The notes under the pieces were generated by a model. It saw only the letters and a program-made list of their open reading frames with translations. It did no database searches and had not been told where the DNA came from. A DNA stretch of 64,000 nt from the IMG/VR virus record IMGVR_UViG_3300031722_000008, positions 1 to 64,000 of that record; one strand, written 5' to 3'. Positions 46,262-54,263 of this stretch are shown here, in pieces. The position numbers were made by a program, and so were the translations under genes. Source of the stretch: a virus. Each line of letters begins with the position of its first letter. Position 1 is the first letter of the stretch.

Positions 46262-46276
46262 GTATAAGATATTAAA
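46262..46276 (+). promoter_or_regulatory. GTATAAGATATTAAA motif
   Basis: Exact copy directly upstream of a tRNA-like element. Confidence 0.8.
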
Positions 46277-46286
46277 GAGAAAGAAA

Positions 46287-46353
46287 TAAATTATAGCTCA
46301 GTTGGTTAGAGCGGTCTATATGACATGTCGTAGGTTCAAGTCCTACTGATTTA
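46287..46353 (+). ncRNA. tRNA-like element with a shrunken anticodon arm
   Basis: Acceptor taaatta/tgattta, D arm gctc-agttggtta-gagc, mini arm gtc-tatat-gac, T arm gtagg-ttcaagt-cctac; no CCA. Confidence 0.75.
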
Positions 46354-46424
46354 TTTTTCTTTAATTTTTTATAGATTGGAGGTATACTAAATGAAAGATT
46401 AAAATTATGGGGGTATGAATAACT

Positions 46425-47100: not shown

Positions 47101-47721
47101 ATGAAGATAACAAAAAATACAATGCAAGAAAGTTTAGATAAAGCCCTAGAAATATTTTCGAAAAACGTAATAAAACCTAACTGTTCAGTCATAATAAAAT
47201 ATATCAATGACGAAGATTTCATAGCAAGTGCAAAGGATACACAATTCAATTCTATGCTAATTAATTCTAAATTCTACGAAGATTTCGATAAGGAATATAA
47301 AAGTTTTGCAGCAGTCTATCCGATGGACAAAACTCAAATAATTAAACTTATGGGATTACCTTATCGAATATCAATATCTTTAGACAGAGCCAAAAGAGTG
47401 CTTTCTAAAGAAAGCACTAAAAATACAAAGGAATATCTTTTACATGTTTTCTTCCATGAATTAACACATTTATTTGAGGACGAAATAAAAGATAAATACA
47501 GTGAATGCTATGATATAATTTCAAACAAATATAATAGTGAAAATCATATAAATGAAATGCTTGCAGAAACATTTTCTTATAAATATACTGACCATGTACG
47601 TTGCGATGAAATGGAGAAGAGATTGAATTACAAATTATATAAAAGGCTTAATAATCAGAGAATAAATATAGTGCATCATGATGATGAGAAAGAAATGACG
47701 GAATACATGAAATATATTTAA
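47101..47721 (+). CDS. HEXXH metallopeptidase-like protein
   Basis: FFHELTH...EMLAE. Confidence 0.6.
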   Translation: MKITKNTMQESLDKALEIFSKNVIKPNCSVIIKYINDEDFIASAKDTQFNSMLINSKFYEDFDKEYKSFAAVYPMDKTQIIKLMGLPYRISISLDRAKRVLSKESTKNTKEYLLHVFFHELTHLFEDEIKDKYSECYDIISNKYNSENHINEMLAETFSYKYTDHVRCDEMEKRLNYKLYKRLNNQRINIVHHDDEKEMTEYMKYI

Positions 47722-48029
47722 TTAATTTCAATGTTCCATCTAGCCTCAAAAGGCTTCTTTGTTTCTTTGATACCTTTTATATTTTTTGTTTTGAATCTCC
47801 TAATTTCATTTTTTGTAGTATCGAACCCCCAAAAATCATCACCTGAAAGTTTGTAGGGTTCAACCAATCTTTTTGTTTTAGTACCTTTTTTGTCTTTGTA
47901 AGATATCTCTAAGAGATTTTTATTGAGACCACAATTTTTAATTTTGTTGATTCTTTTATCATTCATAGTTAATTCTTGTGCCTGTTTTTCAATATAATCC
48001 TTATATTTATTTCTAAGATGAATATTCAT
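47718..48029 (-). CDS. Stand-alone WYL-domain protein with N-terminal EKQA tag
   Basis: YKDYIEKQA then EISYKDKKG..TKRLVEPYKL...FWGFD..KNEIRRFK..NI. Confidence 0.75.
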   Translation of the reverse strand: MNIHLRNKYKDYIEKQAQELTMNDKRINKIKNCGLNKNLLEISYKDKKGTKTKRLVEPYKLSGDDFWGFDTTKNEIRRFKTKNIKGIKETKKPFEARWNIEIN

Positions 48030-48098
48030 TAATATCAACTCCTTGATTCTTATTTTAATCAAGGAGTTGATTAGTATCAATAAGAAAGAGGGAGATTT

Positions 48099-50443: not shown

Positions 50444-50614
50444 ATGTCTGATAACAAGAAAAATCCTATCATTGGAGAAACTATCAGTGATGTCCATTAT
50501 GGCAATCCTATGATTATAGAATTTGAGAGTGGAGATAAAATAGAAATGGAATTTTGCAGAGTAGATGGAGAAAACACTGCTCTTACGAAATATATAAAAA
50601 AAGAAAATAAATAA
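50444..50614 (+). CDS. Small hypothetical protein (56 aa)
   Basis: Manual ORF after GGGAGG: MSDNKKNPIIGETISDVHYGNPMIIEFESGDK... Confidence 0.6.
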   Translation: MSDNKKNPIIGETISDVHYGNPMIIEFESGDKIEMEFCRVDGENTALTKYIKKENK

Positions 50615-50650
50615 AATAATAGCGTGGCGATAAGCCACGCTATTATTTTT
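50614..50650. terminator. Bidirectional terminator ending the + operon and the - RNA array
   Basis: aataatagcgtggc-gataa-gccacgctattatt. Confidence 0.85.
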
Positions 50651-50933
50651 CGAGGTGCTACTTCATAAAATCCCTCACATAATCGATATAGTTTCAGTTT
50701 ACCATGCAGATTGTTATCTGACAAAGATATCAATTATTTTTACTTGTGGGCTGCAACGGCCACAAGCGAAGTCTTTTTTGTAGGGTTCGAACCCACTAAA
50801 CAGTATCATTCTTCACTATACAAATGCACCGTTTTTTCGCCGAGGTCAAGGATTAGAAGTCCTAGCCTATACCGGAGAGAACTAAAGCAAAAGTACACGA
50901 ATGCTGATATGAGAAACCCACTGTTTCTGCCAC

Positions 50934-51009
50934 TGGCCAAGGGAGCAAGGTTCGAACTTGCGCATACATATTCTAAGAATACAGCTCTACCACATTAAGC
51001 TATCCCCTG
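50934..51009 (-). ncRNA. tRNA-like gene with non-canonical anticodon arm (5-nt loop CUUAG), CCA end
   Basis: Intact acceptor, D arm and T arm gcaag-ttcgaac-cttgc; anticodon arm gtatt-cttag-aatat. Confidence 0.7.
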
Positions 51010-51127
51010 AAAATCTTTTTTGGTATCCATTGCGGTATTTCCGCTAGTCCAATACCTGTATGATAAATCATACTAAATGTCACGATTTGAGCATGTCGTG
51101 AAATGACAGAGGCTTGTGAGGCTCTTT

Positions 51128-51222
51128 TGGCGGAGCGACAGAGATTCGAACTCTGGCATCGGTGACTAACCGACCTAGCAGTTTTCAAGACTGCCCCCTT
51201 ATAGCCACTTGGGTATCGCTCC
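51128..51222 (-). tRNA. tRNA-Ser(TGA)
   Basis: gcagt-ct-TGA-aa-actgc, long variable arm, GCCA end. Confidence 0.93.
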
Positions 51223-51229
51223 ATATGTA

Positions 51230-51345
51230 CGACCAGTGAGGGATTTGAACCGCCTACTCAAATTTAAATCTTTAAATAACCCAATCCGGAAAAGTTAAGT
51301 TAGTGTTTTAAATCGTGCTTTAACCAAACATAAGCTACACTGGGC
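51230..51345 (-). ncRNA. tRNA-like RNA with a greatly elongated anticodon arm
   Basis: ccagtg/cactgg acceptor, D arm gctt..ggtt.aagc, GGTTCAAATCC T loop; ~55-nt hairpin in place of the anticodon arm. Confidence 0.65.
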
Positions 51346-51564
51346 ATGTAAGAGTAAATTAATACTCTAAATATAATACTAGGCTTGCAGAAGTTAACAA
51401 TACTGCAAGATGATGCCTTACTAATCTCGCCTTTATTCGCAAAACTAGGTTTACCTACTTCTTTCTTCTCATACTTCCTAATATTCTATTTACAATATTA
51501 ATTTTATGCCCCACATCATCTTAGCATTTTTAAGTATAAACTTAAAACATTGAATCAGCAGAGC

Positions 51565-51719
51565 AAGCAGAGAATAAGAGGATTCGAACCTCCAATGGAT
51601 TTCCCATGTATAATTTCAACACAGCCAGATTATGAATCATCTGACAAGCTAATCTTATCAGTTTAGTACAAAGCACTAAACTGACTTAGCAGCGTATGCC
51701 CATTCCGCCATATTCTCTG
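51565..51719 (-). ncRNA. Expanded (~150 nt) tRNA-like RNA with extra hairpins
   Basis: cagagaata/tattctctg acceptor, Leu-type D arm (tggcggaatgggcatacgc), T arm ggagg-ttcgaat-cctct, four internal hairpins. Confidence 0.7.
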
Positions 51720-51896
51720 TACTTAGTCCCAACCTACTAAGTGATGAGCTCCTCATGAACTCTCCGAAATTTTCTCCTATTTAGGTACCTAACGGTGGAA
51801 ACTCATGACCTCTTGCGGTGCAGTACTACACATATTTACCAAGATCACTTATTCTCTTTAAGTCGAGGAGACATAATTTCTGAAACCTTTTGACTT

Positions 51897-51969
51897 TGGT
51901 GGACGATTGAGGATTCGAACCTCCGACTTTCAGACCAGCTGACACGCTTTACCCTTAAGCTATTCGCCC
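51897..51969 (-). ncRNA. tRNA-like gene with 5-nt anticodon loop (CUGGU), CCA end
   Basis: tcag-ctggt-ctga arm; D and T arms present; ACCA. Confidence 0.7.
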
Positions 51970-52118
51970 ATATTAAATCCAGTCTTTCCTGGAAGTCACC
52001 TAAAATACTGATTACTCGACAATGGTTATGCCGTTATAACTCCGTATCAGCTTGGAGAGTTTCCTTATACACATCGTAGCCAATCCTAACCGCAAAAGCG
52101 CGGTGTGTACGGATTTAT

Positions 52119-52205
52119 TGGTGGAGCGAGTAGGACTTGAACCTACAATGAGCGAACTCAACAGATTTACAGTCTGCCTGCCTTTTCCAATTTGCATATC
52201 TCTCC
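52119..52205 (-). tRNA. tRNA-Tyr(GTA)
   Basis: gcaga-ct-GTA-aa-tctgt, variable arm, ACCA. Confidence 0.9.
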
Positions 52206-52266
52206 ATAGTGAGAGTTTCTAATTATTTGACCTAGCCCGGAAACTCAATAAGGTAAATGGCTATTT

Positions 52267-52355
52267 TGGCGGAGAAGAAAGGACTCGAACCTCCATGCCG
52301 ATTTCTCGACAATAGCTTAGCAAGCTATCGTGGCTACCAATTTCACCACTTCTCC
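52267..52355 (-). tRNA. tRNA-Ser(GCT)
   Basis: atagc-tt-GCT-aa-gctat, long variable arm, GCCA. Confidence 0.9.
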
Positions 52356-52439
52356 AAGTTGTTTCTAATTATTTTCGTAACTTCTTTTCGTCGTTACTTT
52401 CTAAGCCTAGAAACCTTTCAAATATGGCTCGTATTGTAT

Positions 52440-52514
52440 TGGTGCAAAGAGTAGGAATCAAACCCACTACACTTGATTATTAGTCAAGCGGTTTACCAAT
52501 AAGCCTATCTCCGC
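52440..52514 (-). tRNA. tRNA-Ile(AAT) (unusual A34)
   Basis: cttga-ct-AAT-aa-tcaag; T loop TTTGATT; ACCA. Confidence 0.75.
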
Positions 52515-52589
52515 ATATTATTTTGGCTTAGCGCCAACCGATAATTATCAGTCAACACTAATTGGTAACTTGCTGGATACCAAGCCTTC

Positions 52590-52677
52590 TGGTGCAAGTC
52601 ATGGGATTTCAACCTCATAATCTCTAAGTCACGTTAATGAAGCTTCCTTAGTGTTCTATCATCGAACTAATACTTGC
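52590..52677 (-). ncRNA. tRNA-like gene with 18-nt anticodon loop, CCA end
   Basis: ctaag-gaagcttcattaacgtga-cttag; gcaagt/acttgc acceptor; ACCA. Confidence 0.65.
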
Positions 52678-52686
52678 ATAAAATAG

Positions 52687-52757
52687 TGGGGCTAGATGGA
52701 ATCGAACCATCAACACCAGGCTTACGGCCTGTGCTCTACCGTTTGAGCTATAGTCCC
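52687..52757 (-). ncRNA. tRNA-like gene with 5-nt anticodon loop (CGUAA)
   Basis: Canonical acceptor, D and T arms; caggc-cgtaa-gcctg. Confidence 0.75.
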
Positions 52758-52762
52758 TATAA

Positions 52763-52854
52763 TGCAGAAATGACTGGATTCGAACCAGTAAATATCAAGA
52801 TATACAATTCTAGAAATTGCAAAGCCTCTCCTCTGACTATATCGCGTTCCCACA
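52763..52854 (-). ncRNA. Degenerate tRNA-like element with a CTA anticodon
   Basis: gcaat-tt-CTA-ga-attgt and T arm actgg-ttcgaat-ccagt; weak acceptor and D arm. Confidence 0.45.
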
Positions 52855-52923
52855 TCATGTATAATAATATATCATTTCTAAAAATACTTTGTCAATACTA
52901 TTTTTTAAAATAGTATAAATAGG

Positions 52924-52938
52924 GTATAAGATATTAAA
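52924..52938 (+). promoter_or_regulatory. GTATAAGATATTAAA motif
   Basis: Exact copy upstream of ORF 52958. Confidence 0.8.
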
Positions 52939-52957
52939 TAAAAAACAGAAAGAGAGA

Positions 52958-53305
52958 GTGATAAACATGAAAAAATTTATAGTAAACAGTTTAGCAGTAA
53001 TCGGAGGATTAACAGTAGTAGGAACAATAGCAGGAATGATGATAACAAAGAAAGCAATTAAAGGAATTAATGAAACAATGACACAAGAAGGTTTAGGAGA
53101 TTTAAGTCAAGTAATTAAAAAGGCAAGTGAAGATCATAAAATGAATGAGGAATTAAATAGACATGCAGAAAAATATGAAATTAAAATAGCAAAGAGTGAT
53201 AATGGATCAATAACGTTTATAAAAGATGGAGAAATTAGAGATGAATATGATAGTTTAGAGCAAGCATATAATTATGTAACAGAACATGAGGAAATTAATA
53301 AATAA
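52958..53305 (+). CDS. Membrane-anchored small protein
   Basis: SLAVIGGLTVVGTIAGMMI. Confidence 0.75.
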   Translation: MINMKKFIVNSLAVIGGLTVVGTIAGMMITKKAIKGINETMTQEGLGDLSQVIKKASEDHKMNEELNRHAEKYEIKIAKSDNGSITFIKDGEIRDEYDSLEQAYNYVTEHEEINK

Positions 53306-53327: not shown

Positions 53328-54263
53328 TTATTTTCCTGCAATTTTTTCAAAACATTCTTCGATGATTTCATTTGCTTCTTTGTGATGAGGATTTTTTGTC
53401 TTTTTGAAAGAATCAGCTAACAGTTTTCCCCCTATAGCTATTGGGATTGCTCCTAATCCTACATGTCCAAGACCTTTAGCAAAATGTTTAGGGTTTTCCT
53501 TTATGAACCGACCAATACCTTTTAATGTTTGTTTCTCATAACCCTTTCCACCCTTTACATATTTTGATGCTATATCTCCTTGAATAACATCTGTTTGTGG
53601 ACCTAACTGATTAAATCCACTTCTAGCTACATTCATAGGAATTTTTTGACCCATATACATGATATTGCCATCCACTTTCTTTTGAAGAATTTTTTGAAAT
53701 TCTTTAGCATTCTTAGCTCCCATTAATTCTGGATTGTCTACTTTATGCATACCCTTATAATCCTTAACAGGAATATTAACTTTTAGTGTTTCTTGAGTTT
53801 TCTTTGCACCAAAAAGATCTGGCATAAGTCTTCCGTTATCAATTTGATCTCTTCTCATTCCTATTCCATCAGCTACACCTTTCTTTTTCGCCATATAAGT
53901 TTTACCTGCTTGTTCTTCTTTTCCTATACCTGCTGCCATAGAAGTTAGGTTATCAGGGTCCATAGCTTTATTTGATAATATTCCATGTTCTTTGATTCCA
54001 CTAACATTATCTTTCTTCGTATTGTGATATCTTCTAACTACACCATCTAGCATTCCTTCTTGCCTTGCCTTATTTATAACGTTTGCTCCGACTGCTCCAC
54101 CAACAATTCCTGCTCCACCCTTAGCAACTTTTTTATTATGTTCTTTTTCAGCATAGTCGAGATCTTTATTTGAAATTTCATCTACAGAAACTCCCCACTT
54201 TTTCGCAAGTTGTTTTTTTGTATATTCTACTGCTGTTTTTTCTATTTGATTTCTATAATTCAT
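53328..54263 (-). CDS. EKTA-tagged protein with putative ADP-ribosyltransferase-fold domain flanked by hydrophobic segments
   Basis: MNYRNQIEKTA; RRYHNT....V.GI.EHGI...TYM (ART/KptA-like); C-terminal KEANEIIEECFEKIA. Confidence 0.65.
   Translation of the reverse strand: MNYRNQIEKTAVEYTKKQLAKKWGVSVDEISNKDLDYAEKEHNKKVAKGGAGIVGGAVGANVINKARQEGMLDGVVRRYHNTKKDNVSGIKEHGILSNKAMDPDNLTSMAAGIGKEEQAGKTYMAKKKGVADGIGMRRDQIDNGRLMPDLFGAKKTQETLKVNIPVKDYKGMHKVDNPELMGAKNAKEFQKILQKKVDGNIMYMGQKIPMNVARSGFNQLGPQTDVIQGDIASKYVKGGKGYEKQTLKGIGRFIKENPKHFAKGLGHVGLGAIPIAIGGKLLADSFKKTKNPHHKEANEIIEECFEKIAGK

Follow-up and report, generated by a model that had tools for sequence, protein, structure and literature searches.

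A phage tRNA operon containing tRNA-shaped RNAs with rebuilt anticodon arms

Unexplained tRNA-like stable RNAs have been known in phage tRNA regions for about 50 years. The T5 record (NC_005859) annotates, as misc_RNA within the tRNA region, RNA1 and RNA2 ("tRNA-like stable RNA with unknown functions") and RNA3 ("putative tRNA-like RNA"), and T4 produces two small stable RNAs of unknown roles from its tRNA region, RNAC (species 1) and RNAD (species 2) (PMC3014915). Here we describe a tRNA array in a 64,000-nucleotide (nt) stretch of DNA from an uncultivated phage (positions 1 to 64,000 of IMG/VR record IMGVR_UViG_3300031722_000008), which we call the window. The array combines four canonical tRNAs with about seven tRNA-shaped RNAs that have a non-decoding anticodon arm, so that mimics outnumber decoders. 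The original prediction, which was made from the sequence alone, treated this arrangement as unprecedented, and in that it went too far, since the T4 and T5 records already annotate tRNA-like stable RNAs in tRNA regions. The array is a mimic-dominated case of a known but unexplained class, and the class is defined by architecture and is not one family.

Predicted folds show how close the architectures are. In T5 rna2 (125 nt) and rna1 (144 nt), as in elements E4 and E3 of the window, extra hairpins are enclosed by an acceptor helix and a good T arm, and T5 rna3 (73 nt) is the size of a tRNA and has a 6-bp stem with a 6-nt loop in the place of the anticodon arm, like E1, E5 and E9. All three T5 RNAs, like the window mimics, are sited among the tRNA genes of a phage tRNA region. 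In T4 rnaC, a terminal helix is accompanied by a perfect T arm close to the 3' end. An acceptor-type terminal helix and a T arm that enclose a non-tRNA interior are thus common to the folds of T5 rna1-3, T4 rnaC, E3, E4, E1, E5 and E9. There are also clear differences. In T5 the mimics are a minority beside 24 working tRNAs, whereas in the window they are the majority, and T5 rna3 lacks the G3.U70 pair found in E1 and E5. T4 has only two such RNAs, located at the end of its cluster; the fold of rnaD has no tRNA features, and the sequences are unlike those of the window mimics. A blastn search with E4, E9-E11, E5 and E1 against 50,697 phage records gave no match to a T4 or T5 stable RNA.

Two other kinds of RNA have a tRNA body without a decoding anticodon arm, as the window mimics do. 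One is the tRNA-like domain of transfer-messenger RNA (tmRNA), which is charged with Ala via G3.U70, and the other is the MALAT1-associated small cytoplasmic RNA (mascRNA), whose anticodon arm is reduced and which RNase P and RNase Z release. Recent work has also presented phage tRNA arrays as anti-defence loci, in which phage tRNAs counteract defences directed at tRNA (van den Berg 2023, PMC10264068), including T5 tRNA-Lys acting against PARIS (PMC11464382) and T5 tRNA-Tyr acting against Retron-Eco7 (PMC11555353). These are array products too, and differences in their anticodon loops matter against nucleases that attack host tRNAs. However, they are decoders with 7-nt loops that replace cleaved host tRNAs, whereas E5, E9 and the plus-strand element Eplus are non-decoding and could act at most as sponges.

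The array and its tRNA-shaped elements

The window covers 64 kb of an 80-kb record (G+C 31%; CheckV completeness about 52%) and encodes a portal protein, terminase, NrdD, helicases and a sigma factor. The same phage is present in other assemblies of up to 160 kb. The arrays in two of these (L001 and L002) are 100% identical to that of the window over 2.4 kb, so that the odd elements are not assembly errors. There are 11-12 tRNA-shaped elements (E0 to E11), all on the minus strand within one promoter-to-terminator unit (52,858 to 50,610), and the source annotations call no protein genes within this interval. The unit begins with a sigma-70-type promoter (52866..52895, minus strand; TTGACA and TATATT separated by an 18-nt spacer, with TG preceding the -10 hexamer; matches at 11 of the 12 consensus positions) about 10 nt upstream of the start of E11, and ends with an intrinsic terminator (50613..50649, minus strand), a 16-bp stem followed by a T run.

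ARAGORN called six tRNAs in the array by default and three more once introns were allowed. The gathering threshold of the Rfam tRNA model RF00005 (29 bits) was reached by eight array elements and by Eplus, with scores of 55.1 bits for E9, 51.7 for E1, 47.5 for Eplus, 33.2 for E5 and 30.1 for E4; among the array mimics, the bodies of E1, E4, E5 and E9 thus lie above threshold. With a simple tRNA-body scanner, matches in the window fell only in the array and at Eplus (46287-46354), compared to 0.4 matches per shuffled 64 kb, and the tRNA bodies of the array are therefore not a product of chance. Taken together, ARAGORN and Rfam located a minus-strand, tRNA-shaped element everywhere the original prediction had drawn one; missing from its list were E0, a hairpin consisting of a T arm only, and Eplus. 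Its statement that several elements retain CCA also held, with CCA encoded after E1, E2, E5, E6, E7, E8 and E10.

Three mimics of the array have a sound body and an aberrant anticodon arm. E9 (52686-52757, minus strand) has a Phe-type body without CCA. It has the top Rfam score of all elements, and its 5-bp anticodon stem is perfectly paired and closes a 5-nt loop, CGUAA, leaving the arm 2 nt below the length of the model. To be read as the second "Tyr-GUA" that ARAGORN proposes, E9 would require a missing N26, an A.G pair, C33 and a Watson-Crick pair between positions 32 and 38. E5 (51897-51969, minus strand) has an Arg-type body with G1-C72, G2-C71, G3.U70, A73 and CCA, and a 4-bp anticodon stem with the 5-nt loop CUGGU, again 2 nt short of the Rfam model. 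E1 (50934-51009, minus strand) is a class I body with C1-G72, G3.U70, G73 and CCA. The original prediction had given 5-nt loops to all three; this is correct for E5 and E9, but E1 is of normal length and its arm is a 6-bp stem with the triloop UUA. A canonical 7-nt loop can be drawn for E1 (ARAGORN "Leu-UAG"), but its stem would have a U.U mismatch and no more than two Watson-Crick pairs. The shifted register forms six pairs and is both the minimum-energy and the centroid fold. A decoding arm (5-bp stem, 7-nt loop, U33, purine at 37) is lacking in E5, E9 and Eplus, which are 2-6 nt short, and forms in E1 only in its weak alternative fold; the loop of its homologue in a related phage (L007) has 8 nt.

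The bodies of E1 and E9 also mismatch the anticodons assigned by ARAGORN. Bacterial Leu and Tyr tRNAs belong to class II and have a long variable arm. Both "Leu-UAG" (E1) and "Tyr-GUA" (E9) are class I with variable loops of 4-5 nt, and the true Tyr tRNA of the array (E6) is class II. E9 is 78% identical to a Vibrio phage tRNA-Phe. It can be aligned with this gene and with the L007 tRNA-Phe through the D arm, variable loop and T arm if 2 nt are gapped in the anticodon arm. The best phage matches of E5 are tRNA-Arg genes, and cellular tRNAs with the 5' body of E5 are mostly tRNA-Arg, which have G3-C70. These matches indicate that the mimics derive from ordinary tRNA genes, and as judged from the alignments they are such genes with a rebuilt anticodon arm, of Phe type in E9 and of Arg type in E5.

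The pair G3.U70 recurs among these elements. Work by Hou and Schimmel and by McClain and Foss in 1988 is said to have identified it as the main determinant for alanyl-tRNA synthetase (AlaRS), and it is avoided in non-Ala tRNAs. We found it in E1, the L007 homologue of E1, E5, the E5-like elements of two further phages (L091 and L093), and E8, and in none of the 17 canonical tRNAs examined, a small sample drawn from the window, L007 and an Erwinia phage array. An AlaRS-type acceptor (G3.U70, 7-bp helix and N73-CCA) is present in E1 (G73), E5 (A73, G1-C72, G2-C71) and E8 (A73). Homologues in L007, L091 and L093 have the same type of acceptor, L091 with CC and then C in place of CCA. These acceptor sequences suggest that the RNAs bearing G3.U70 can be alanylated.

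Other elements are expanded. E4 (51567-51718, minus strand) is a 152-nt tRNA frame with an 8-bp acceptor, a D arm and a T arm, in which the anticodon loop is swapped for a 13-bp hairpin and the variable region holds three further hairpins, an expansion of 73 nt. Its minimum free energy is -51 kcal/mol (z = -5.4), and it is missing from L007 precisely as a unit. E3 (51229-51346, minus strand) has a Leu-like D arm, an acceptor with one mismatch and an imperfect T arm. Its "anticodon loop" is 26 nt long and its variable region forms a long hairpin; ARAGORN detects it only in intron mode, Rfam does not detect it, and its fold is unremarkable (z = +1). The long hairpin insertions that the original prediction had placed in both elements are present in E4; E3 has an enlarged loop and a variable hairpin. 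By analogy with T5, E4 and perhaps E3 would be structured RNAs on a tRNA scaffold, of the RNA1/RNA2 type.

E10 (52588-52682, minus strand) consists of an acceptor, a D stem, a 5-bp stem with an 18-nt loop, an imperfect T arm, A73 and CCA, and was not detected by Rfam at E up to 10. The 18-nt loop had been recognized in the original prediction, but the elbow is not preserved as it had supposed; the T loop lacks C56 and the D loop lacks GG (fold z = -2.0). E11 (52760-52856, minus strand), rightly called degenerate, is partial, with a long terminal acceptor-like helix, small internal hairpins and a good T arm, and without a D arm or CCA. Its Rfam score (24.2 bits, 52765-52811) is under the threshold, and its fold z is about 0. 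E0 (about 50779-50797, minus strand) lies just before the terminator and is retained in L007. E10, E11, E0 and possibly E3 may be relics.

The four canonical tRNAs with 7-nt loops are as originally described (Ser-TGA, Tyr-GTA, Ser-GCT and Ile-AAT). E2 (51128-51222), E6 (52119-52205) and E7 (52267-52355), all on the minus strand and found by both ARAGORN and Rfam, are class II tRNA-Ser(UGA), tRNA-Tyr(GUA) and tRNA-Ser(GCU), and E2 and E6 have orthologues in L007. E8 (52440-52514, minus strand) has a canonical 7-nt loop with anticodon AAU, which would make it Ile, and an acceptor with G3.U70 and G4.U69 followed by A73 and CCA. A34 is rare in bacteria outside Arg-ACG. The identity of E8 is ambiguous, given A34 together with G3.U70 and G4.U69. 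ATA makes up 51% of the Ile codons of the phage.

Several other identities were tried for the elements and rejected. A bacterial Y RNA (YrlA) does not fit, with a best RF02553 score of 18.2 compared to 69 bits and with ends that form an acceptor, not a Ro-binding stem. The Rfam score for mascRNA was 17 bits against a threshold of 42.5, and for tmRNA ARAGORN found none and there is neither a tag reading frame nor pseudoknots. For tRNAs bearing a group I intron, the inserts (19, 73 and about 11 nt) compare with more than 200 nt, no Rfam intron family was found and the stems are mismatched. The possibility that the insertions are spliced out to leave normal tRNAs, which would have undone the original prediction, is likewise not supported by these short inserts and the poor intron models of ARAGORN. 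The palindromic anticodon hairpin of E1 was considered as a DNA operator and dropped (11 matches in the window versus 10 expected).

Conservation of mimic bodies in related phages

Close relatives of the phage are scarce, and each mimic family is supported by two to three sequences. The only close relative is L007, whose SprT protein is 80% identical to that of the window. Its array is shorter, with E0, an E1 homologue, Ser-UGA, Tyr-GUA, Phe-GAA and an initiator-like Met tRNA, and without E3, E4, E5 and E8-E11. E1 and its L007 homologue differ by eight substitutions and one extra U in the loop (7 versus 8 nt). Pairs 5:68 and 51:63 are compensated, one A-U pair has become G.U and no pair is broken. 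Apart from the loop indel there are no substitutions in the anticodon arm and variable region, unlike in the orthologous Ser and Tyr tRNAs of the two phages, in which the anticodon stems have changed.

Eplus (46287-46354, plus strand) is a 68-nt element that closely follows a conserved phage promoter motif and is flanked by the genes for dCMP deaminase and an SprT-like protein. It has a 3-bp anticodon arm with a 5-nt loop, an extended acceptor helix, no CCA, and a U run after it. L007 has such an element at this site too (53.7 bits), as does L088 (42.2 bits), a phage with an SprT protein 55% identical to that of the window. Across the three phages, 96% of the cells are paired over 19 pairs, and nine pairs have changed on both sides. 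None of 500 shuffles was as good, slid registers were also far worse, and RNAalifold independently recovered the acceptor, D and T helices. The loops in this family are UAUAU, GCAA and AUAA (5, 4 and 4 nt).

Four further phages (L090-L093) were found via a 311-aa protein encoded next to the array. Their locus order is kept, no canonical tRNA is present at the locus, and each has one tRNA-shaped gene there, which ARAGORN labels "tRNA-???". In L091, L092 and L093 this gene has the acceptor of E5, including G3.U70 and A73. CCA is encoded in E5 and in L093; in L091 and L092 the CC precedes a further C. Within the E5 family, compensatory changes have occurred at pairs 6:67 and 11:24, and the anticodon loops have 6 and 8 nt, compared to 5 nt in E5. 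The tRNA-like element in L090 has an 8-nt loop.

Covariation across related phages, which the original prediction had named as a check, is thus found as compensated pairs in the Eplus, E1 and E5 families. The substitution patterns support the view that the tRNA bodies of these three families are kept by selection and have not decayed. The bodies are compensated while loop length drifts (5/6/8, 7/8 and 5/4/4 nt), which indicates that the anticodon arms are free of decoding constraint. On this comparative evidence, a body that is kept and a loop whose length drifts are the reverse of what decoding requires, and are not what decay predicts. The earlier contention that the elements are mimics and not products of decay therefore stands for Eplus, E1 and E5, and is conjectural for E3, E4, E9, E10 and E11, which are absent from the only close relative.

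A further case is the cultured Erwinia jumbo phage pEa_SNUABM_9 (L098, MW812341), in which unannotated gaps of the tRNA array hold tRNA-like bodies (1368-1485, 1495-1562, 1577-1645 and 2315-2378). One is 118 nt long and CCA-ended with a 7/7 acceptor, and another is 68 nt long with a 3-bp mini anticodon arm and is 82% identical to E5 over 55 nt.

Other searches for relatives were negative or uninformative. No relatives were found by protein-pattern scans of IMG/VR with a neighboring 338-aa protein and the terminase, and E1, E9 and the E5 family had no matches when IMG/VR was scanned with DNA patterns. An IMG/VR scan with an SprT alignment recovered 80 distant loci (37-45% identity), only one of which had a tRNA, and is uninformative on the array. 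Scanning metagenomes with an anchor from a conserved spacer produced two matches, both due to chance, in otherwise dissimilar sequences, and 24 kb of the window had no megablast match among phage records. There were no tRNA-like bodies in L094 or at the locus of protein P0083 (L099 and L100), and a loose T-loop pattern search gave 15 matches compared to 11 expected.

Two observations concern the surroundings of the tRNA-like genes in the L090-L093 group. Immediately 5' of the tRNA-like gene, a DUF3800-VIII RNA motif (RF03075) is found in L093 (6921-6987; 41.1 bits versus a threshold of 40.2), L091 (6922-6988) and L092 (5694-5760), the latter two scoring 38.7 bits. In addition, a gene for an Acb2/Tad1-hairpin protein (a cyclic-nucleotide sponge) is located a few genes from the tRNA-like locus in L090 (2522-2887), L091 (2386-2751) and L093 (2383-2748), which suggests that the tRNA-like neighborhood is an anti-defence region.

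Possible roles and alternative explanations

We hold with moderate confidence that the array is one operon of selected, non-decoding tRNA mimics and four decoders, in which the mimics most likely occupy proteins that bind tRNA. The operon would be expressed early, from the host-type promoter at ~52,895 to the terminator at ~50,613 on the minus strand, as a polycistronic precursor that carries the four decoding tRNAs (Ser-UGA, Tyr-GUA, Ser-GCU and Ile-AAU) and the non-decoding tRNA-shaped RNAs. The mimics retain what the tRNA maturation and handling machinery recognizes, with the acceptor helix, T arm and D/T elbow kept and, in many cases, N73-CCA as well, and because the acceptor, T arm and elbow are retained, the mimics should be cut out, trimmed and stabilized like tRNAs, via the RNase P, RNase Z and CCA pathways. 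Their origin lies in ordinary tRNA genes whose anticodon arm was remodeled; this arm is now free of decoding constraint, while compensatory changes hold the body. Decoding is not the role of the mimics.

The most plausible partners would be proteins that read the acceptor end and elbow of tRNA. Candidates include host toxins or defence enzymes that act on the acceptor end, synthetases, EF-Tu and processing enzymes, and AlaRS would be a candidate among the synthetases, given that E1 and E5 carry its determinant G3.U70 with N73-CCA. Other targets named in the original prediction fare less well. Recognition by T-box RNAs and by RelA requires pairing of a specifier or codon with the anticodon, which the mimic loops are unable to offer, so that both are unlikely targets. 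Anticodon nucleases read a 7-nt loop, and a role as decoys for them is therefore less plausible than one as ligands for acceptor-end or elbow proteins or for synthetases.

The recurrent G3.U70 leads to a concrete hypothesis, charging by AlaRS. In its fullest form, which we consider doubtful, the lineage would maintain anticodon-less bodies of Arg and Phe type, two families of which would keep G3.U70 and N73-CCA and be alanylated without decoding, as decoys for acceptor-end or aminoacyl-tRNA enzymes or as alanine donors for a non-ribosomal reaction. If true, this would be the first function for tRNA-like stable RNAs of the T4/T5 type. More generally, the operon is an extreme case, in some relatives a mimic is the only tRNA-shaped gene kept at the locus, and the relatives provide direct comparative evidence that at least three mimic families are selected for the body, with the loop freed from decoding. 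If the mimics are decoys or aminoacyl carriers, they would add an RNA-based mechanism of counter-defence or takeover and would change how "pseudo-tRNAs" are annotated in phages.

Several points weigh against a selected, protein-occupying role. The covariation rests on few events, with two or three sequences per family, and relatedness inflates the shuffle control. A textbook drawing of E1, in which a 7-nt loop has U33 and a purine at 37, is still possible. Retention of G3.U70 over a small divergence could be inheritance alone. The folds of E3 and E11 are no more stable than shuffles, and E10 has lost its elbow nucleotides. E3, E4, E9, E10 and E11 had no homologue anywhere searched, including the close relative L007. 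The array gaps of pEa_SNUABM_9 hold elements that are similar and clearly degenerate, so relics do occur in arrays. Finally, genes for a CCA-adding enzyme, RtcB, an RNA ligase or tRNA repair were not found in the 80-kb record, which represents about half of the genome.

Some of these points favor a different account, that the elements are debris of gene turnover. Genes come and go rapidly in phage tRNA arrays, through recombination between conserved arms, and the elements would be functionless tRNA genes, recently disabled or chimeric, that are still awaiting deletion. The sharp difference in content from L007 (E3, E4, E5 and E8-E11 absent, Phe and Met tRNAs instead), E10 without its elbow nucleotides, the thermodynamically unremarkable E3 and E11, the lone T arm of E0 and the degenerate tRNA-like pieces of pEa_SNUABM_9 all fit such turnover, and there is an ascertainment bias, in that a relic is noticed as tRNA-shaped only if its acceptor and T arms are intact. 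Nonetheless, we regard debris as a rather unlikely explanation of the whole. It fails for Eplus, with nine compensated pairs, for E1, with compensated pairs and an invariant anticodon arm, and for the E5 family, whose member is the sole tRNA-shaped gene kept at the L091-L093 locus. The anticodon stems of E9 and E5 are new and perfectly paired, not old ones that have been broken, E4 is far more stable than expected by chance (z = -5.4), and it is rare for a phage genome to retain some 1 kb of dead DNA within an operon. Another idea is that the bodies serve only as punctuation or scaffold, providing signals for RNase P and RNase Z cleavage and for stabilization of other RNAs, such as the conserved spacers, the hairpins of E4 or, for Eplus, the end of a neighboring mRNA, as with mascRNA at the 3' end of MALAT1. 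RNase P requires only the stack of acceptor and T arm, which would explain why the anticodon arm alone is free. The spacers are about 80% identical to those of L007 and have short motifs that recur before and after tRNAs, E4 and E3 hold hairpins inside a tRNA frame, and Eplus, with its extended acceptor helix and U run, is located between a promoter motif and a gene. A cleavage signal, however, would not need the anticodon arm of E1, which is the most conserved part of that element, nor the D arms, elbow nucleotides, N73-CCA and G3.U70 that are retained, and spacer RNAs with structure or with conservation above the genome-wide level are so far hypothetical. We judge pure punctuation to be improbable.

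It is highly improbable, in our view, that the elements are unusual but working decoders, with E1 reading CUA (possibly as Ala, as in Ashbya mitochondria), 8-nt loops reading quadruplets and insertions being spliced out. tRNAs with 8-nt loops do exist in nature, E1 has the option of a textbook 7-nt loop with UAG, CUA accounts for 13% of the Leu codons of the phage, and ARAGORN in intron mode draws E3 and E4 as intron-bearing tRNAs. Those "introns", of 19 and 73 nt, are at non-standard positions and far too short to be group I introns, and their removal would leave poor stems and anticodons with A34. Recoding of CUA to Ala was considered and rejected, because, when NrdD is aligned with a solved homologue, its six CUA codons fall opposite L, L, M, I, I and D, and a Leu reading is at odds with E1 being class I with G73 and not of the bacterial Leu type. 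The L007 homologue of E1 has an 8-nt loop, and loop length varies among close homologues. Decoding would need C33 in both E5 and E9, and a pyrimidine at 37 in E5.

Spacers, promoters and neighboring genes

The spacers between the tRNA genes (51470-51565, 51723-51896, 52206-52266 and 52356-52439, minus strand) are 79-86% identical to those of L007. They contain GTTTCTAATTATTT twice on the plus strand and a small conserved hairpin, and E5 and E8 are each followed by a AAAGGUUUC motif; the spacers may be processing signals or small RNAs.

A motif with GTATAAGATATTAAA is repeated upstream of several genes and of Eplus (46262-46286, about 52924-52975 and other sites of the window). L007 and L088 have it unchanged, and the motif is probably the promoter of the phage itself. 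Unlike the genes with this motif, the tRNA array uses a host-type promoter (TTGACA/TATATT).

Directly upstream of the array promoter is the gene for the 311-aa protein (53328-54263, minus strand), which is predicted to have an ADP-ribosyltransferase (ART) fold. A profile search gave a weak match to RNA 2'-phosphotransferase (E = 0.11), and all top Foldseek matches have the ART fold (pertussis-like PltA, DarT, KptA/Tpt1 and Rhs ART toxins; E = 0.015-0.1). The predicted fold makes a link of this protein to RNA possible. Homologues adjoin the tRNA-like locus in L007 and L090-L093 too, together with a 344-426-aa protein of unknown fold; the corresponding neighbor in the window, of 396 aa, had no match in an Atlas search. 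Between Eplus and the array is a gene for a small WYL-domain protein (47718-48080, minus strand), which has a counterpart in L007 (2486-2797) with a weak match to Pfam WYL.

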